Shown here piece after piece: positions 7,109-37,262 of a stretch of DNA of 64,000 nucleotides. The stretch is from a bacterium. Lineage in GTDB: Bacteria; Patescibacteriota; Minisyncoccia; Phycocordibacterales; CAIZLB01. The stretch is from positions 152,424 to 216,423 of the forward strand of contig JANOAN010000013.1 of the NCBI GenBank assembly GCA_031411135.1, given 5' to 3'. A model generated the notes under the pieces. That model was not told the DNA's origin. It made no database searches and was given only the letters and a program-made list of their open reading frames with translations. A program made the position numbers and the translations under genes. Position 1 is the stretch's first letter. Each line of letters opens with the position of its first letter.

Positions 7109-7996
7109 TTAGTTGTTTTCAGTTTCTTTACTATCCAGTTTAGGTTTAGAATCTTCTTTTATTGTACCCAAGCCCGATACAAATTTGGTAAATTTTTCCC
7201 AGAAAGAAGGTAACTTCTCGCTTCCCTTTTGGATGTTTATACTTTCTGGTTTTTTCATTTGACTTGCAATCTTTTGCTTAATTTCTTCTGCCCTCTTCTC
7301 AGCCACTTTTTTTTCATTCTCAACCTTTGCCAAATCTTTAAACCACTTGTCTATTTCCCGCCTGCTTGAATCGTCTGTTTGTATATCTCGCATCTCATGC
7401 TTGTTCGCGTCTTGTGCCTCTTGAATGTATGTCTTTTTCTTATTTTCAAATTTAGCGCGCTGTTCCTGACGCAGATGTTTTTCAGGACGATGAATATTTA
7501 CCTGTTCCTTCTTGGGAATCTTCTCCTTTTTTTCTAAGACTACCTTTGGTGCTTCAGGTACTTTCTCTACTGGTGCTGAGCGAGGAACAACAACTTCCGG
7601 TTCTTTAATTTCTGCAACTACAGGTTCTGGTACTTCTTCTGCAGGCTGATGCTGAGCCATAATTTCAGGAAGATCTTTTAAAGTTGCTCCCGCGTTAATA
7701 TAACCTTCTCCTTTTTCGTTTTCTCCCATTCCTAAAGCCTCTACTGCTGCCTTCATCTCTTCTGCTGTTACAGGAGTTTCCTTTACAGTCTCAACTGCCC
7801 CTGCAGACTCTTCTTTATCTATGGATTCTTCTGCTACTGCCTCAGCGACACTCATTGGCTCTGCATCCGAAGCTCGAAATTGCTTCTTAGATTTCTTCTT
7901 TTTACTTTCGTTAAATGGTTTTTCTAATTCTGGGACTTCAAATTTCATTTTCATATACACCAATTCTAAACAACCACCTCCACTTTGTCCATCCAC
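7109..7996 (-). CDS. Lys/Glu-rich low-complexity hypothetical protein
   Basis: 295-aa ORF between secY and adk, highly charged (KE repeats). The true start may be MKMKFEV at about 7954. Confidence 0.45.
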   Translation of the reverse strand: MDGQSGGGCLELVYMKMKFEVPELEKPFNESKKKKSKKQFRASDAEPMSVAEAVAEESIDKEESAGAVETVKETPVTAEEMKAAVEALGMGENEKGEGYINAGATLKDLPEIMAQHQPAEEVPEPVVAEIKEPEVVVPRSAPVEKVPEAPKVVLEKKEKIPKKEQVNIHRPEKHLRQEQRAKFENKKKTYIQEAQDANKHEMRDIQTDDSSRREIDKWFKDLAKVENEKKVAEKRAEEIKQKIASQMKKPESINIQKGSEKLPSFWEKFTKFVSGLGTIKEDSKPKLDSKETENN

Positions 7997-29739: not shown

Positions 29740-31071
29740 TTAAACAATAGGTTTCACAGCGGAAACATCCTTTTTATCGGGGGATGTTTTTGTTTTGGTT
29801 ACACAGAAATAAATTACAATCATTATAAAGTAGCAAATCAAAGTTTGCTTCCAAGTCCACTTGGGAAATTCAATCGCCGCAAATGGAAGGTTTGCGCATA
29901 TGTGAACAATCCACAATTCATAAGAAAGCAATGCAAAAGAAATAAAGGAAAATATTTCTGCGATAAAACTTGAAACAAAACTGATTAACATTGATGCCAC
30001 CACAAAAAACATAGTATAGGGTATGAAAGGAAGGACCACTATATTAGTGAAGAGAGAGATGAGCGAGACTATTCCAGAGAAGTGCATAATAAGCGGGGTA
30101 ATAGCAATCTGAGTTCCGAGTGTCGCGGAAATCGTTTCTTTTACCCCAAATTTTTCTGGTAAAAAAGACAGACGTTTTGAAATTTTATCGGACAAAACTA
30201 TGAGACCAAGAGTGGCCGTAAAACTCATCTGAAAAGAAGGATCGTAAAACAAAAGCATCGGATTAAAGGCCATCATGATAAGCCCTGCAATAAAAAGACC
30301 TTTAAACGGATCATACACCAGGTTCATGGTCCTTCCATAAATCGCAATCGCGTTCATAAATAGCGACCGCATGACTGATGCTCCACCACCCACCATCAAA
30401 CAAAAACAGGTCATGAAAAACATTCCGATGACGAAGCGGACGGTGGGAGGTAAAAATCCAAGAAGCGCCATCACTACAACCGCAATTATACTGACATTGA
30501 AACCAGACAATACAACAATGTGAATCAGACCGACTCTCTTAAACTCGTTTTGAAGTTCTGCATCGAGTGACCCCTTCCCGGTCAGAATTAGTCCGGCACC
30601 TAAAAAAGATTGAGGTTGGGGTAGAAGTGAATTTATTCTTTGGATGCAAATATTTTTTATACTGATTAAGGCGAGTTTAAATTTTGAAGGGGTGGAGTTA
30701 TCTATAAATTCAATCTTTGGATTTTTTATTTGATAAAAGATCTTACGAACTCGCATATAATCTCCGTAGGATGATTTTGGATCCCCATCGGAAATATTTG
30801 TAAGTTTTCCTTCAATTTTTAAGTTGTCGCCGTATTTAAGCGGAGTAAAAAAATACTTGGTGCTAACTTGAATTAAATTACCCTCGTGTGTTTTTGCAAT
30901 AAATCTTTGTGAGTCTTTTGATGAATCTGGTTCTTCGATAATCTGTACCGATAATGTAACTTTTTGATTAGAAAGTTTTCTTAAAACTCCATCATCCTTT
31001 GGCCACATAAAGAATCGAATTGTAATAATTACAAACAATATAAAAACGACAATCCATTTGGATTTATTCAC
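29740..31071 (-). CDS. comEC: ComEC/Rec2 N-terminal part (DUF4131-like + competence channel domain)
   Basis: Multi-TM competence domain (GLIHIVVLSGFNVSII... pattern). Separated from the MBL part by the antisense SOD gene. Confidence 0.7.
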   Translation of the reverse strand: MNKSKWIVVFILFVIITIRFFMWPKDDGVLRKLSNQKVTLSVQIIEEPDSSKDSQRFIAKTHEGNLIQVSTKYFFTPLKYGDNLKIEGKLTNISDGDPKSSYGDYMRVRKIFYQIKNPKIEFIDNSTPSKFKLALISIKNICIQRINSLLPQPQSFLGAGLILTGKGSLDAELQNEFKRVGLIHIVVLSGFNVSIIAVVVMALLGFLPPTVRFVIGMFFMTCFCLMVGGGASVMRSLFMNAIAIYGRTMNLVYDPFKGLFIAGLIMMAFNPMLLFYDPSFQMSFTATLGLIVLSDKISKRLSFLPEKFGVKETISATLGTQIAITPLIMHFSGIVSLISLFTNIVVLPFIPYTMFFVVASMLISFVSSFIAEIFSFISFALLSYELWIVHICANLPFAAIEFPKWTWKQTLICYFIMIVIYFCVTKTKTSPDKKDVSAVKPIV

Positions 31072-31125: not shown

Positions 31126-32058
31126 TTACTTCAAATTCTGATACCCCACAACTATTGCCTCGGCAATAAATAGTTCCAAGTGAGAGTAATTATCATGCTC
31201 TTGGGCTTGTTCAAGGTAAGTGTAGTATAGAATCTTTTTTTCTTTTTCAATAATAGAAGGAGAGATTTTGTGCGACAAAAGCATTGTATTAAGTAGTAGT
31301 CTCCTCACTCTACCGTTCCCATCGGAAAAAGGATGAATCTTTTCAAACCTCGCGTGTATTTCAGAGGATTTTTTTATGAAATCCCTGTTATTTAATTTTT
31401 TCGCTTCATTAATTTCATTAACTAAGATCTCCATTAATTCTGGTACTCTAATATAATTAGCTGTAACAACATTTGTTCCAGCAATTCTCACACCGTGATT
31501 TCTGTAATTTCCGGCATTATCCATAATGCCATTCATGAGTATTTCGTGAAGCCTTTTGATATACCTCCCATCTAGATCTTTTTTTGAAGCGAGAAAGTCA
31601 AACATGTACTGAATAGCCACTTTGTGGTTCTTGGCTTCTATTTGCTCAACAAGGGTTTTATTTTTAAGATTCGTATTCTCAAAAATTACCATAGCAGTTT
31701 CTCTTTCAGTTAAAGTACTACCCTCTATAGCATCAGAATGGTAAGTTGACCTGACGCAAAAATGTTCATATAAATCTTTTCTTTGTAAAACGAGATTCAA
31801 TGGATCACTTATTAGTTGTGAAAAGTTTAATATTTGATCGTAAACTTTTTCAAGTTCGAGACTGGAAACTTCACCTTTTCCTGTATATTTATCATAAAGA
31901 TCATTGATTTTATTCAAAGCTTTTGGTCGAGGTGAGGATTTACCGAGAAACCATGCATTAAACGCAGGAAAACTCACACCAAACATGCTAGCAAGCTCGG
32001 TCTGCGTAAAATTCAATTTTTCCTGAATTTTTCTTAATTTTTCCTGAGTTTCGGTCAT
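31126..32058 (-). CDS. Fic family protein with N-terminal HTH
   Basis: HPFSDGNGRVRR (HPFx[DE]GNGR Fic motif). N-terminal XRE-like HTH. Confidence 0.85.
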   Translation of the reverse strand: MTETQEKLRKIQEKLNFTQTELASMFGVSFPAFNAWFLGKSSPRPKALNKINDLYDKYTGKGEVSSLELEKVYDQILNFSQLISDPLNLVLQRKDLYEHFCVRSTYHSDAIEGSTLTERETAMVIFENTNLKNKTLVEQIEAKNHKVAIQYMFDFLASKKDLDGRYIKRLHEILMNGIMDNAGNYRNHGVRIAGTNVVTANYIRVPELMEILVNEINEAKKLNNRDFIKKSSEIHARFEKIHPFSDGNGRVRRLLLNTMLLSHKISPSIIEKEKKILYYTYLEQAQEHDNYSHLELFIAEAIVVGYQNLK

Positions 32059-32115
32059 GGCAACATACTATCAAACTTTATAAAGTTATACAAATATAGC
32101 CAAACTTTATAAAGT

Positions 32116-32838
32116 TTATTTACTAAATTCCCTTACAATCTCTTCCTCATCAACTTTTGAAATTGATTTTTTAAACAAAGCTTTCTTTCCGTGTACTCTT
32201 TTTTTACATTCATCCCAAGTTTGATCAATATTAATTTTTCCTTGAACCATGCTGACATATGAGAATGCTGGTGATTTATTCTTTGATGATTTTTTAGTTG
32301 GAACTCCAACTTTAATATTTAAAACCACATCCTTGTTTGGATACTCGGCTAAAAACCCACTGTACAAATCTGGCTTCTTTCCATCCGCATAAGCAGTCGC
32401 AATTTCATCGCACCTCTCGTTTCCAAAAATTTCGCTGTGCCCTTTCAAAAGAGTCCATTTGATTTCTTTTCCTTTTAATACAGAATCCATTTCTTGCCAC
32501 AAATCTATGTTTTTAACTTCTTCTTTTGTTGAACTGATCCAGTTTTTAGCTTTCCATCCGTGAAGCCATTTTGTAGCACCGTTTAACACATATGCGGAAT
32601 CTAATCTAACTTCATATTTTGTAACAGTACCTTTAGCATAGTAGTCATCAAAGAATTTTAAACCTTCAATTACAGCCTTTAATTCCATTCGGTTGTTGGT
32701 TGTTAAGTCCTCTCGGCCCCCTCTTTCGTCAATTCGCATTTCGTCAGCGTCGTTTGGGTATATACAGATAAAGCCGTAGCCACCAGGGCCAGGGTTTCCG
32801 CGAGATGATCCGTCGGTGTAGATGGTGATGGGTTTCAT
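32116..32838 (-). CDS. rnhA: ribonuclease HI with C-terminal RNA/DNA hybrid-binding domain (HBD)
   Basis: TDGSSRGNPGPGGYG...TNNRMELKA RNase H core. C-terminal FSYVSMVQGK...TWDECKKRVHG...KKF resembles the hybrid-binding (caulimovirus viroplasmin-like) domain. Starts 8 nt after the RT stop. Confidence 0.8.
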   Translation of the reverse strand: MKPITIYTDGSSRGNPGPGGYGFICIYPNDADEMRIDERGGREDLTTNNRMELKAVIEGLKFFDDYYAKGTVTKYEVRLDSAYVLNGATKWLHGWKAKNWISSTKEEVKNIDLWQEMDSVLKGKEIKWTLLKGHSEIFGNERCDEIATAYADGKKPDLYSGFLAEYPNKDVVLNIKVGVPTKKSSKNKSPAFSYVSMVQGKINIDQTWDECKKRVHGKKALFKKSISKVDEEEIVREFSK

Positions 32839-32846
32839 GAGGGGTA

Positions 32847-33830
32847 TTATAACACCTGGTCTATTTGCTCTACTAATTTTCTAGAATTTCCATGAGACAA
32901 AAGCCCTAAATATGACTGTGCCACCTCATCAATCTTGTTATCTTTTAAATTCCTAAACATCCTACGTTTTGCCGCGGATCTTAAAACCCGACAATCTGTA
33001 AAATGTACCCATCCCAAAAAATCTACACCTGGTGCAAGAGTCCGTATAAAAATTTTGTCCGGGTGAAGAGAAAGTTTTAGTCTTGATAGCAAAAAATCGT
33101 GAATTTTTGACAGCACATTTTCTAGCCACGACTTGTCCTTGTTCATAATTACAAAATCATCAGCATACCGGATATAATATTTCGCTTTTATCTTGTGTTT
33201 AACAAACTGGTCAAACTCATTCATGTAAATATTAACTAACAATTGAGACGTAAGATTACCTAAAGGCAACCCTTTACCTACAGCAGTGCTGTGAAAACTT
33301 GAAAGTATGCGATTGAGCAACCAAATAATATCCTGATCCTGTATGTGCACTTTTAATATTTCTACTAACACACTTTGATCAATTGAGGCAAAGAATTTCC
33401 TGATATCGCATTTTAAAACCCAAAGCGTTTTTGAATAATTATTACTCGCTTTATAGGAATATTTTCTAAACTGATTTAATGCTTTGTGTGTTCCTTTACC
33501 TAACCTGCACGAATAGGAGCTTGAACTAAATTTTCGATCAAAATACGGGTACAAGATTCGGTATATTGCATGGTGAAGCAACCTGTCTCTCACTTTTGCT
33601 TTATGAATATTTCTTGGCTTTGGGTCAGAAATATTGAAAGCTTCATACTCTCCATGCATATATGTCTTATGAACAAGGTCGTTATGTAGAGAAATAATAT
33701 TATGCATTAAATTACGCTCAAATTCCTGCGTATCCTTTCTTCCTCTTTTGCCACGGATAAATTCCTGCCAAGCTTCGAGCAAATTTTCCAAAGAGATGAT
33801 ATCTTTATACTTAAAAATAAAAAAAGACAC
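32847..33830 (-). CDS. DGR-type reverse transcriptase
   Basis: RT motifs DIRKFFASID, LPLGNLTSQ (DGR-specific [I/L]GxxxSQ) and YADDFVIM. GTG start. Adjacent to Avd and TR. Confidence 0.9.
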   Translation of the reverse strand: MSFFIFKYKDIISLENLLEAWQEFIRGKRGRKDTQEFERNLMHNIISLHNDLVHKTYMHGEYEAFNISDPKPRNIHKAKVRDRLLHHAIYRILYPYFDRKFSSSSYSCRLGKGTHKALNQFRKYSYKASNNYSKTLWVLKCDIRKFFASIDQSVLVEILKVHIQDQDIIWLLNRILSSFHSTAVGKGLPLGNLTSQLLVNIYMNEFDQFVKHKIKAKYYIRYADDFVIMNKDKSWLENVLSKIHDFLLSRLKLSLHPDKIFIRTLAPGVDFLGWVHFTDCRVLRSAAKRRMFRNLKDNKIDEVAQSYLGLLSHGNSRKLVEQIDQVL

Positions 33831-33833
33831 ACC

Positions 33834-34223
33834 ATGAATACTACACCCCCCCCGAGAATGCTACCAGTGCTTCAGCGTCTAAAAAGCCTCTATATCTTGT
33901 GGCATGACTACTACCAAACCATACCAAAAATCCACAGACACTCTCTTGGTCAGAGAATCGATACTTTATTTGTGGAAACCATCGAGGCAATATCGGTTGC
34001 AAGCTTTTTATCTAAAGATGAAAAGCAACCTTGGGTTCGGTTAGCTATACGAAAAGTTGATACTACTAAGATACTTTTGATGGTGTTATGGGAAACCAAA
34101 TCTCTAGATAATAAAAAATATATAGCCCTTTCTGGACCCATAGATGAAATAGGAAAAATGCTTGGCGGATGGCAAGGACAGATAGCAGCGCAACTTTCTA
34201 AACAAAACTCCTCCGCCATATAG
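33834..34223 (+). CDS. avd: DGR accessory variability determinant (Avd)
   Basis: 129-aa four-helix-bundle-like protein that aligns with Bordetella-phage Avd (YILWHDYYQTIPK..., ...IDEIGKMLGGW). Encoded divergently from the RT. Confidence 0.75.
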   Translation: MNTTPPPRMLPVLQRLKSLYILWHDYYQTIPKIHRHSLGQRIDTLFVETIEAISVASFLSKDEKQPWVRLAIRKVDTTKILLMVLWETKSLDNKKYIALSGPIDEIGKMLGGWQGQIAAQLSKQNSSAI

Positions 34224-34243
34224 ACAGAGGAGAAATGAAAAGA

Positions 34244-34371
34244 TTTGCGAAACCCAAAGCAGTATTGTTGGCGTTACGGTTGTTGTCGAGCCAGTTGGCA
34301 TTCCAGTTCCAGGAGCCATCATCGTTCCGATAGAGATACAGGGCGTTCCGGTTGCCGTTCGGGTTGCGAAG
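34244..34371 (-). repeat. DGR template repeat (TR), 128 nt, adenine-rich on minus strand (AAY codons)
   Basis: Identical to 34772-34899 except at 21 positions that are all T on the plus strand (A on the minus strand). Encodes NRNALYLYRNDDGSWNWNANWLDNNRNANNTALGFAN. Confidence 0.9.
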
Positions 34372-34641
34372 AATTGTATAAAGCACCGCCTATTTCACCA
34401 CCCCTTGAAGTCCCGTGACGATCTCAGGATTGAATCGTATTCGGCATCGTAATGCCATAGTGCCTTACACCAAGTATCTTCATTTTTGTTGAAGTGTCTG
34501 CATGCACCACTCTACCTGAAGCCTTGACCGCAGATACTCTCGATGCACGGATACTGGATTCGGTAGGAAGAAACCTTAATCTCTTCCATATTCACCTACT
34601 ACCGCTTTTTATCTTATCCTAAAAAATTAAATTTTGATATA

Positions 34642-34670
34642 GAAAAACCCCGCGCAAATGCAACGGGGCT
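34642..34670 (-). terminator. intrinsic terminator downstream of the DGR target gene
   Basis: ccccg-cgcaaatgcaa-cgggg with a T-run on the minus strand. Confidence 0.6.
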
Positions 34671-34767
34671 GGAAGATTTGGAGTTGTATCTTGCCATAAC
34701 TTACTTTTTGAGCCGAAGAGCAAAGTTCAAAGGGTCAGAGGAGACCACAGTGTCCAAAGCCCGAGAG

Positions 34768-35397
34768 CTACTCTGCGAAACCCAAAGCAGTATCGCTGGC
34801 GCTACGGCTGCGGTCGAGCCAGCCGGCACTCCAGTCCCAGGAGCCACCATCGCGCCGATAGAGACACAGGGCGCCCCGGCGGCCGTACGGGCTGCGAAGG
34901 GTGGTTCCGAGGAATTCGATCCAGCTGACGTTGAGGGTCTTGTGGAGCCACTTCAAGGTCGTCTGGTTCTCTTCCTTGTAAAGCGCTTCGCCGATCTTGG
35001 CATCCGCTTGGATCGCTTTCAGCAGGAGCCGTGCGCGTTTCTCTTCGCCGGTGACTGTGGTTTCGTCATCGATGAGGCCCGTCTGTGCGATGAGCTTCGT
35101 CGGGTCGAGTTCGGTGATGGCGAGCGAGCTCTTGTCCTGCTCTTCGTCGCCTTTGAGTCCATCGCCGTCCTTCGGTCCGCGCCAGATGCTCCAGCCTTCG
35201 CCGGTGAACGTGGCGGGGTCGAACGGAGTGGTGCGGTCGATCTTCAGGACTTGTGGTTTAAGGACGTGTTCGAGGGGAACGACGACGGTTTCGCCACGAA
35301 GGAATTTCAACGCTCCTGGCGTTCCTCCGAGCTTTTTTACGATTGCATTCAATTGCCCACCTGTAAGGTCGGCCATTGCGAATTTATCTTCTGACAT
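34768..35397 (-). CDS. DGR target protein (hypothetical, C-terminal C-type-lectin/FGE-like variable region)
   Basis: 209 aa, about 58 percent GC. C-terminus LYRRDGGSWDWSAGWLDRSRSASDTALGFAE is the VR-encoded counterpart of the TR peptide. Confidence 0.85.
   Translation of the reverse strand: MSEDKFAMADLTGGQLNAIVKKLGGTPGALKFLRGETVVVPLEHVLKPQVLKIDRTTPFDPATFTGEGWSIWRGPKDGDGLKGDEEQDKSSLAITELDPTKLIAQTGLIDDETTVTGEEKRARLLLKAIQADAKIGEALYKEENQTTLKWLHKTLNVSWIEFLGTTLRSPYGRRGALCLYRRDGGSWDWSAGWLDRSRSASDTALGFAE
34772..34899 (-). repeat. DGR variable repeat (VR) at 3-prime end of target gene
   Basis: 128-nt ungapped match to the TR with substitutions only at TR adenines (17 A>G, 3 A>C, 1 A>T). Confidence 0.9.
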
Positions 35398-35606
35398 GTT
35401 TCCTCCTTGTGCTTAGTTGCACGTTGGATTTTTCCCCTAATCCGGGGCAGAACCATGACCGTGGTAGTCATAGCCAGAAAACGTTGATAAATCAAGGTCT
35501 TTTGGCTATGACTACTGAAAAAATTGTAAGGTTCTGAACTGTTTAATATTATATCACATCATATATCTTCTTGTCAAGCTCAGCGTAATGGTTCAATACC
35601 TTTGCA

Positions 35607-37262
35607 TCACCTCCCTTTCAAAATCTCCACCGCCCTTAACCTCAACTCCGGTCGCCCTTTAAAACTCGACTTCTCAACCGTCGCAACCATATCAATCACA
35701 TCATTCACCGCCACCACAATATCACTGAAAAAACTAATCGCCGGAAGTATCGCACCATTCTCGTCACCTACCCTAACCTCAACATGCTCCTGCGCCTTTC
35801 CAAATTTTTTATACCCAACCACCGTCACCTTCTGAAGCATAAAAAGTGGTTTTGAATTATTCACCCCAAACGGCACCATCTTCTCAAGAGCATCCCAAAA
35901 CTTCCAATTAATGTCGGATACATTTAGTAAACTATCAACTTCAACTGTCGCATCAACATCACTTAATGAAACCTTACTCATCGCATTAACGAGGTGTTCT
36001 GAAATTAAATGAATATGATCATCGTTTACTGCAAAGCCTCCAGACATCGCGTGTCCACCCGCTTCTTTAAATACCCCCTCTTGAACTGCATTCATTAAAT
36101 CTACCAAATGATACGATCCATTTGATCGGCAAGAACCTTTAATAACCCCCTCTTCATCCCTTCCCCACACAAACGCCGGTTTGTTATAATCTCTCATCAA
36201 ACTATTTGCCACAAGTCCCAATAGTGCCGGCTTCCAATTTGGATTTCCAACCACAATTAGTGGTGCATTATTAAAATCCTCATCTTTGTGATTTTTCTTT
36301 ATATCCTTTGAAATCAACGCAACTTGGACTTTTCTCTCGGTATTTATATCTGTTAAAACTTTGCAAAGACTTTTTGCTTTAACGACATCATCTGTTGAAA
36401 GTAATTCAAAAGCAATCACAGGATCTGCCATTCGAGACGCTGCGTTAATGCGAGGGGTAACCAGAAATTGAATATCATCCTCAGTTGCTGTTTTCGGATC
36501 CAGTTTTAAAGAAAGAAAAAGTTGCTGCAAACCTACACGCATATTTTTCTTCATCACCTTTAATCCATACGAAGCTAAAATTCTATTCTCTCCAATCAAA
36601 GGGACCATGTCAGACAAAGTCGCAAGCCCCACCATATCCAAGGACCACTTCTCCATTCCATCTTTTATCTCAAATTTTTTGTACAGTGCTTGAATTAATT
36701 TGTAAACTACACCCGAACCACACAAAATCTTTTCAGGATATGTGCACCCCGGTTGTTGCGGATCCAAAATCGCATAAGCTTCTGGAAGTTTCTCATGAGG
36801 TAAGTGGTGATCGGTAATTATGACCTGTATTCCCAATGAATTTGCATGTGCAACCTCATCAACGTCAGCAATTCCGCAATCTGCTGTAATTAACAATTTC
36901 GCACCCTGAGATGCAATCTTTTCAACCGCATCACTATTCAATCCAAAACCTTCCTTGTGTCGATGTGGGATATAGAACATAACATTGTCATATGAAATCT
37001 TTTTAAAGAAATCATGAAAAACCACTCCGGCAGGAATTCCATCTGCATCGTAATCTGTGTAGATACAAATTTTTTCTTTATTTTTTACAGCCTCAAATAC
37101 CCTTAGAACCACCTTCTCCATGTCTTTCATTAGATACGAATCATAAGTTCCCTTGTCATAATCAGGGTTTAAAAAGGCCTCCTTATCCTTAACTCCTCTG
37201 TGAAAAAGTAGATGATCAATCAAACTTCCCTCTGCCATGTCTCGAATGCGGTATTTTGCCAT
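35607..37262 (-). CDS. recJ: single-stranded-DNA-specific exonuclease RecJ
   Basis: DHH (ITDHH) and DHHA1 (GGHAMSGG) motifs. 551 aa. Confidence 0.85.
   Translation of the reverse strand: MAKYRIRDMAEGSLIDHLLFHRGVKDKEAFLNPDYDKGTYDSYLMKDMEKVVLRVFEAVKNKEKICIYTDYDADGIPAGVVFHDFFKKISYDNVMFYIPHRHKEGFGLNSDAVEKIASQGAKLLITADCGIADVDEVAHANSLGIQVIITDHHLPHEKLPEAYAILDPQQPGCTYPEKILCGSGVVYKLIQALYKKFEIKDGMEKWSLDMVGLATLSDMVPLIGENRILASYGLKVMKKNMRVGLQQLFLSLKLDPKTATEDDIQFLVTPRINAASRMADPVIAFELLSTDDVVKAKSLCKVLTDINTERKVQVALISKDIKKNHKDEDFNNAPLIVVGNPNWKPALLGLVANSLMRDYNKPAFVWGRDEEGVIKGSCRSNGSYHLVDLMNAVQEGVFKEAGGHAMSGGFAVNDDHIHLISEHLVNAMSKVSLSDVDATVEVDSLLNVSDINWKFWDALEKMVPFGVNNSKPLFMLQKVTVVGYKKFGKAQEHVEVRVGDENGAILPAISFFSDIVVAVNDVIDMVATVEKSSFKGRPELRLRAVEILKGR

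Follow-up and report, generated by a model that had tools for sequence, protein, structure and literature searches.

An RNase HI with a C-terminal hybrid-binding domain next to a diversity-generating retroelement in a Patescibacteria recJ-comEC locus

The stretch of DNA analysed here, a 64-kb window of a Patescibacteria genome (assembly GCA_031411135.1, contig JANOAN010000013.1, positions 152,424 to 216,423), contains a ribonuclease HI gene, rnhA, whose start codon (ATG, 32836-32838) follows the stop codon (TAA, 32847-32849) of the reverse transcriptase (RT) gene of a diversity-generating retroelement (DGR) by 8 nt. All coordinates refer to the whole window, and L-numbers denote comparison loci gathered from relatives. 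Read 5' to 3' on the minus strand, the gene order is recJ, the DGR target gene, the template repeat (TR), avd (which lies on the plus strand), the RT gene, rnhA, a gene for a helix-turn-helix (HTH)-Fic protein and comEC. We conclude that rnhA is very probably a resident housekeeping RNase HI in its usual slot between recJ and comEC and not a component of the DGR, and that DGR and Fic gene were inserted separately, one on each side of rnhA. The features which bear directly on rnhA are the following:

32116..32838, minus strand: rnhA, RNase HI with a C-terminal hybrid-binding domain (HBD), 240 aa (open reading frame (ORF), Pfam and NCBIfam matches, homologues, AlphaFold model)
32383..32838, minus strand: RNase HI catalytic domain of the E. 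coli type, residues 1-152 (PF00075, Foldseek, invariant catalytic residues)
32269..32382, minus strand: linker, residues 153-190 (predicted local distance difference test score (pLDDT), alignment variation)
32119..32268, minus strand: HBD, residues 191-240 (profile matches, structure models, residue identities)
32846..32854, minus strand: extended -10 box TGTTATAAT, probable rnhA promoter (sequence, cross-locus conservation)
35607..37262, minus strand: recJ, the upstream neighbour of rnhA, kept in DGR-less relatives (ORF, synteny)
29740..31071, minus strand: comEC (Competence domain), the conserved downstream neighbour of rnhA (ORF, synteny)

Domain architecture of the RNase HI

A hidden Markov model scan of the six-frame translation found a single copy of rnhA in the 64-kb window. 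Residues 2-149 of its product match the Pfam family RNase_H (PF00075, E = 5.5e-37), and the NCBIfam model for ribonuclease HI (NF001236) scores the protein at 152.7 bits, slightly under the 160-bit equivalog cut-off. Residues D9, E52, D80, H134 and D144, which we take to correspond to E. coli D10, E48, D70, H124 and D134, show no variation across an alignment of 40 homologues. The AlphaFold model of the full-length protein displays a mean pLDDT of 91.9, and its best Foldseek matches are to E. coli RNase HI (~41% identity, E ~1e-15, TM 0.85 when normalised by target length). By profile, catalytic residues and fold, the rnhA product is a type 1 RNase H (RNase HI) of predicted activity, as the initial annotation of this DNA had called it. 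PADLOC returned no defence-system matches for this RNase H. The catalytic domain is followed by a linker made of a short structured stretch and a Lys/Ser-rich part; its length and sequence differ across the family alignment, and the model has low confidence there (pLDDT <50 at residues 178-187).

Beyond the linker, residues ~191-240 are modelled with confidence (pLDDT >90) as a β-β-α-β-α module, in which strands 193-198, 201-205 and 220-225 form a three-stranded sheet packed against helices 208-215 and 228-239. Foldseek with the full-length model detected the catalytic domain only, and the 52-residue C-terminal domain was therefore modelled separately. The two best PDB matches of this isolated model are chains of 3BSU, in which the human HBD is in complex with a 12-mer RNA/DNA hybrid (TM 0.54-0.68). 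Because the E-values are non-significant at such a size, the assignment of the domain rests mainly on sequence profiles. The C-terminal segment of the window protein alone scores 14.1-16.7 bits against PF01693, under the cut-off of 21; among family members, all 33 that were tested match PF01693, with a best E-value of 1.9e-7. A profile built from the family's domain finds the N-terminal HBDs of yeast (1QHK, E = 1.4e-5) and human (3BSU, E = 3.9e-4) RNase H1, and nothing else significant. Y194, W208 and F222-K223-K224 align with Y29, W43 and F58-K59-K60 of human RNase H1, which we take to be its hybrid-contacting residues: no variation is seen at Y194, W208 and K224, and conservation of K223 is at least 90%.

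On these profile matches the C-terminal module is a hybrid-binding domain (dsRHbd, PF01693), with RNA/DNA binding as its predicted function. The same domain had been proposed from the window sequence at the outset, and it is the family as a whole that bears the proposal out, with a domain search of the window protein alone remaining sub-threshold. It is highly improbable that the module is instead a general binder of dsRNA or dsDNA, or a protein-interaction module which merely shares the fold, given that the profile matches go solely to RNase H1 HBDs, that PF01693 is found throughout the tested members, that the human contact residues are conserved or invariant and that the domain is in every case fused to RNase HI; what speaks for such a reading is the score of the window protein under the Pfam threshold, the non-significant Foldseek E-values of the 52-residue domain and the known ability of the HBD family to bind dsRNA as well (PMC1950709). 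By analogy with the human and yeast enzymes, the HBD would probably anchor the enzyme on RNA/DNA duplexes, with the tethered catalytic domain cutting the RNA strand of R-loops and primers.

This architecture extends well beyond the window. A homologue search returned more than 100 full-length proteins of 223-325 aa, several of them with a precomputed PF01693 match, and nearly all of those with a source name come from Patescibacteria. Looking up the exact sequence of the window RNase H gave no identical entry. Full-length matches outside this group were to Bdellovibrio bacteriovorus and to an Elusimicrobia metagenome-assembled genome. When genome contigs were scanned with the RNase H alignment, most of the matches listed were rnhA genes of proteobacteria that lack the HBD, and only ~11 of the loci listed cover the full query length. 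Kochiwa et al. 2007 reported a C-terminal dsRHbd on the RNases HI of Bdellovibrio, Myxococcus and Gloeobacter, and described HBD-bearing RNase HI as single-copy and often as the sole RNase HI of a genome (PMC1950709). RNase HI combined with an HBD is family-wide, already on record and not specific to DGRs. Our literature search found no paper on a Patescibacteria clade of HBD-bearing RNase HI or on recJ-rnhA-comEC synteny.

Neighbourhood and promoter of rnhA

The position of rnhA was compared across relatives with and without a DGR. Fourteen DGR-less loci, most of them distinct, from relatives whose rnhA is 41-90% identical, have the gene in the same recJ/comEC position, within a conserved HIT-recJ-rnhA-comEC-sod cluster and with no RT. 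Nine loci of distant Patescibacteria, among them Saccharibacteria and Taylorbacteria, with rnhA 39-48% identical, share the gene order HIT (minus strand), recJ, rnhA, comEC, sod (minus strand) and MBL, with zero matches to RT, Avd or Fic. Closer relatives of the window rnhA display the following arrangements:

L081-L084, rnhA 90% identical: 188-aa opposite-strand ORF between recJ and rnhA; Fic gene between rnhA and comEC; DGR absent
L089, rnhA 86% identical: AAA_33 gene between recJ and rnhA
L088, rnhA 84% identical: RT, rnhA, comEC; Fic gene absent
L090, rnhA 83% identical: rnhA, then comEC; contig end ~0.8 kb upstream of rnhA
L091, rnhA 76% identical: recJ overlapping rnhA, then comEC
L092, rnhA 64% identical: recJ overlapping rnhA, then comEC

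Among these close relatives, only L088 has an arrangement of RT and rnhA like that of the window. The window contains both the Fic gene and the DGR, L081-L084 the Fic gene only, L088 the DGR only and L089-L092 neither. Because the combinations differ by locus while rnhA is constant, the presence of Fic and that of the DGR are independent of one another and of rnhA. The gene is the fixed element of the locus and a member of an old recJ-rnhA-comEC cluster. The suggestion in the initial annotation that this is a hybrid-binding RNase H dedicated to the DGR is not supported, since an rnhA of the same architecture occupies the same slot in DGR-less relatives.

The two junctions flanking rnhA behave as small variable slots which take up DGRs and defence-like cargo. 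The cargo between recJ and rnhA varies: it is an AAA_33 or VakA-like gene in L089 (5394-5996), a DGR in the window and L088, and in L081 an unannotated 188-aa opposite-strand ORF (7323-7889) with a weak AbiEi-like match. In the DGR-less L091 (6001-6008) and L092 (6001-6004), recJ and rnhA overlap by 4-8 nt, and the conserved C-terminal peptide of RecJ (...RLRIVDII) encodes the TGATATAAT box which precedes rnhA.

The sequence immediately upstream of rnhA displays the signs of a promoter. A -10-like hexamer is found 6-9 nt before the rnhA start at 14 of 18 loci, compared with 3.7% of window ATGs, and a -10 box with a TGn extension (TGnTATAAT-like) at 9 of the 18, compared with 0.45% of window ATGs. 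Coding sequence of recJ or of an RT, or intergenic sequence, can precede the box, which is present in each case. In the window it reads TGTTATAAT (32846-32854) and ends 7 nt before the rnhA ATG, with the RT stop codon TAA inside it; a stop codon of an RT lies within the -10 box in L139 as well. Loci where an extended -10 box was noted before rnhA are the window, L002, L004-L006, L008, L012, L081, L088, L090-L092, L124 and L139.

From this conservation, rnhA is probably transcribed from an extended -10 promoter of its own into a leaderless mRNA, which possibly comprises rnhA or rnhA-comEC. Between recJ and this promoter lies a DGR cassette of the candidate phyla radiation (CPR) type, ~2.77 kb in length (32839-35606) and consisting of a promoter, a target gene with its variable repeat (VR), TR, avd on the opposite strand and the RT gene. 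With the cassette in that position, the RT reading frame ends inside the -10 box, and with the promoter directly before the ATG the 8-nt gap would simply reflect a cassette which ends just upstream of the promoter. The locus is thus a case in which insertion just upstream of a leaderless promoter can yield tight spacing beside a retroelement, and an 8-nt gap is a poor basis for assigning function.

The adjoining retroelement and Fic gene

The DGR occupies the interval between recJ and rnhA with the following features:

32847..33830, minus strand: DGR RT (ORF, profile matches)
33834..34223, plus strand: avd (bAvd and DivGenRetAVD profile matches)
34246..34371, minus strand: TR (repeat comparison)
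34768..35397, minus strand: DGR target gene, 209 aa, with the VR at 34774-34899 (ORF, repeat comparison)
35548..35577, minus strand: consensus promoter between recJ and the target gene (sequence)

TR and VR are direct repeats of 126 nt with 20 differences, all 20 of which fall at TR adenines, and RT and Avd both match their Pfam and NCBIfam profiles. With a TR/VR pair that differs at TR adenines only, together with RT and Avd, the DGR is genuine, and rnhA does begin 8 nt past the stop codon of a real DGR RT, as had been noted from the sequence at first reading. The RT start codon is uncertain: the public protein P0121 (314 aa) is 13 residues shorter than the window ORF. The start codons of the longest RT and avd ORFs are 3 nt apart (33830-33834), a distance that grows to ~42 nt with the shorter P0121 start. 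The two genes lie on opposite strands in all 72 related loci where both were found, and the TR transcript must therefore run antisense through avd to reach RT. A non-canonical order or orientation of avd is typical of CPR DGRs (PMC5758913). A 10-bp G+C-rich hairpin followed by a T-run (34208-34232, minus strand) lies 14 nt past TR, over the 3' end of avd; its role could be that of a terminator or of a structural part of the TR RNA.

Upstream of the target gene is a perfect consensus sigma-70 promoter (35548-35577, minus strand: TTGACA, an 18-nt spacer with TG, and TATAAT). The target protein had no match in Pfam or NCBIfam, and its VR type (...DGSWDWSAGWLD...ALGFAE) is unlike the targets of L124, L138 and L139. 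G+C content is 0.59 for the target gene, 0.69 for VR and 0.35 for the adjacent RT, compared with 0.395 for the window.

We surveyed 83 related RT loci, 80 of them from metagenomes, for the genes next to the RT. An RNase H lies downstream of the RT in three (L124, L138 and L139), each time between recJ and comEC; the other 80 loci have no RNase H match, and their downstream genes are very diverse. The RNases HI of L124 and L139 are 159-161 aa long and without HBD, and that of L138 is an RVT_3-type RNase H. The gap from RT to RNase H is -4 to 29 nt in L088, L124 and L139, and in L138 a long RT frame runs over the RNase H start. At L128, comEC directly follows the RT gene. The regions concerned are 2005-3482 of L124, 2414-3956 of L139, 4935-6403 of L138 and 1640-3938 of L128.

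The closest relatives of the window RT, in L085-L087 (80% and 76-77% identical), are part of entire cassettes with target, TR, avd on the opposite strand and RT. These cassettes lie in unrelated contexts, followed by unknown genes or a class II aminoacyl-tRNA synthetase, and none of the three has an RNase H neighbour. The RTs next to an RNase H cluster neither with each other nor with the window RT by pairwise identities, and the tree is star-like and poorly resolved. Clustering of all neighbouring ORFs revealed other recurrent DGR contexts, namely the isoleucyl-tRNA synthetase IleRS (4 loci) and a conserved 597-aa protein family (4 loci). The proposal that rnhA is the most enriched DGR neighbour was rejected, as other contexts are equally frequent; a single clade of rnhA-adjacent RTs, or a single ancestral event, was likewise not shown by the pairwise identities. 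Adjacency of DGR and rnhA is a minority arrangement; it recurs, though not above the frequency of other contexts, and does not depend on the presence of an HBD.

On the other side of rnhA, the rnhA-fic gap of 57 nt and the Fic gene contain two features:

31126..32058, minus strand: HTH(XRE)-Fic protein, 310 aa (Pfam, motif positions, PADLOC)
32075-32086 and 32104-32115 (span 32075..32115), no strand assigned: two palindromes ACTTTATAAAGT in the rnhA-fic spacer (exact-match search)

The protein matches HTH_3 (E = 1.8e-5, HTH at residues 9-56) and Fic (PF02661, E = 3.6e-20), which agrees with its original designation as an HTH-Fic protein. The Fic motif HPFSDGNGRVRR at residues 242-253 fits HxFx(D/E)GNGRxxR, and the inhibitory-helix motif SDAIEG at residues 108-113 fits (S/T)xxxE(G/N) and lies N-terminal to the core, as in class II. 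Among PADLOC profiles, PDC-S04 matches with E = 5.9e-44 and SoFic with 2.6e-26. A further resemblance of the protein is to a fusion of the 'mobile mystery protein' pair A (HTH) and B (Fic), with a match to TIGR02613 (6.6e-9) that is below the cut-off. The palindrome ACTTTATAAAGT has exactly two matches in the window, 29 nt apart and both just upstream of fic; both copies and their spacing are kept in the DGR-less L081 (8710-8752), where the intervening sequence differs. The HTH domain of the Fic protein itself probably uses the twin palindromes as its operator. The Fic module is thus probably autoregulated and independent of the DGR, with profile matches that make it a defence candidate, and its independent occurrence across loci agrees with the early description of it as a passenger.

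Weighing the readings and comparison with known systems

The initial annotation placed RT, rnhA and fic in the same operon. The positional part of this statement stands: the three genes share a strand, the gaps are 8 and 57 nt, and no terminator-like sites were found on the minus strand between them. As a statement about transcription it is weakened by the signs of own promoters at both rnhA and fic, and 'same operon' is here a description of position only. Conservation of the RT-rnhA pair, which had been put forward as a check, is not seen: none of the three closest and 3 of the 83 related RT loci have it, with RNases H that lack the HBD.

The reading we favour is that rnhA is a housekeeping gene of the recJ-rnhA-comEC cluster, beside whose promoter a DGR cassette would have lodged, with an autoregulated SoFic/PDC-S04-like HTH-Fic module placed on its own at the rnhA-comEC junction. 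This RNase HI may serve the DGR in the way that any RNase H of the host would, and nothing in the present evidence shows a specialisation of the enzyme for a DGR role. Several points weigh against this reading. The rnhA promoter is proposed from sequence conservation, to which coding constraint may contribute where the box overlaps the tail of recJ, as it does in some loci. The 8-nt gap between RT and rnhA, free of a terminator, allows read-through co-transcription at the window locus. DGRs lie directly before an RNase H at recJ/comEC in L088, L124, L138 and L139, whose RTs do not cluster; this exceeds the expectation from random placement. DGRs at this position in distant Patescibacteria indicate either a hot spot or an old placement. 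Finally, work on homing of the Bordetella phage DGR has put forward a step by a host RNase H in the integration of DGR cDNA (PMC5703328).

An old placement would mean that a DGR settled between recJ and rnhA in an early Patescibacteria ancestor and was repeatedly lost, so that the DGR-less state is derived and the neighbourhood is old and not necessarily functional. We regard this as unlikely. Junction DGRs do occur in lineages with rnhA identities as low as 30-49%, and RT identities of ~62-70% in a star-like pattern are compatible with vertical descent. The overlap of recJ and rnhA in several lineages (L091, L092) argues against it, as do the different type of target protein in the window compared with L124, L138 and L139, the other contexts in which the nearest relatives of the window RT reside and the target G+C of 0.59, which is foreign to the genome (0.395).

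It is quite improbable that the DGR has functionally recruited its neighbour, in the sense that it is kept beside rnhA (and recJ) since co-expression of RNase HI aids removal of the template RNA or of RNA primers from the cDNA, which would make rnhA a de facto accessory factor in mutagenic homing. The tight, co-directional and terminator-free spacing fits this proposal; however, such orientation and spacing are expected of any insertion which preserves the operon and a start-proximal promoter, and rnhA occupies the same position in genomes without a DGR. An RT followed by RNase H recurs in L088, L124, L138 and L139 with RTs of different branches, but the RNases H beside the RTs in L124 and L139 lack the HBD, that of L138 is of another type (RVT_3), ~96% of related DGRs, the three closest included, have no adjacent RNase H, and IleRS and the 597-aa family recur equally (4 loci each). 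The host RNase H step hypothesised for Bordetella phage DGR homing (PMC5703328) favours recruitment, whereas the published list of DGR accessory genes comprises avd, HRDC, MSL and CH1 and does not include RNase H (PMC5758913). We give equally little credence to the broader proposal that recJ-rnhA-comEC is a preferred home of DGRs in Patescibacteria, where linkage to RNase HI, and possibly RecJ, aids cDNA maturation or integration; if it were true, the cellular RNase HI would be a recurrent, position-linked helper of DGR homing.

The window rnhA thus appears to be an ordinary gene: its domain calls are correct, and its neighbourhood is coincidental or opportunistic. The significance is modest: this is an ordinary RNase HI, correctly recognised, with an architecture already on record. 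In many Patescibacteria the standard RNase HI appears to be one with an HBD, encoded within a recJ-rnhA-comEC cluster that is conserved and has a start-proximal promoter, which is of use in annotation and in considering how minimal genomes remove R-loops and primers.

Each part of the locus has counterparts among known systems. The DGR shares target-VR, TR, avd and RT with the CPR-type DGRs of architecture B3 of Wu et al. 2018 (PMC5758913), from which nothing notable differs. The Fic protein shares the profile match and the Fic and SxxxEG motifs with SoFic and PDC-S04, single-gene Fic defence candidates, and with class II Fic AMPylators that have an N-terminal inhibitory helix; unlike SoFic and PDC-S04, it has an N-terminal XRE-type HTH and operator-like upstream palindromes.

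For the RNase HI itself, the E. coli enzyme has a ~41% identical catalytic domain with the same active-site residues and fold, but lacks the HBD. Eukaryotic RNase H1 (human 3BSU/6VRD, yeast 1QHK) shares with the window enzyme a homologous HBD, including the Tyr, Trp and Phe-Lys-Lys contacts, as well as the flexible linker and the type 1 catalytic domain; its HBD is N-terminal, so the domain order is reversed, and the window catalytic domain is closest to that of E. coli RNase HI. The nearest counterparts in domain order are the RNases HI of Bdellovibrio bacteriovorus, Myxococcus xanthus and Gloeobacter violaceus, which like the window enzyme are arranged as RNase HI, linker and HBD (PMC1950709). 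The Bdellovibrio homologue is 37% identical to the window protein in a full-length alignment, and its match to PF01693, at the same C-terminal position, is above the threshold. Compared with these three enzymes, the window family is distinguished by its Patescibacteria members and by a Lys/Ser-rich linker of variable length.

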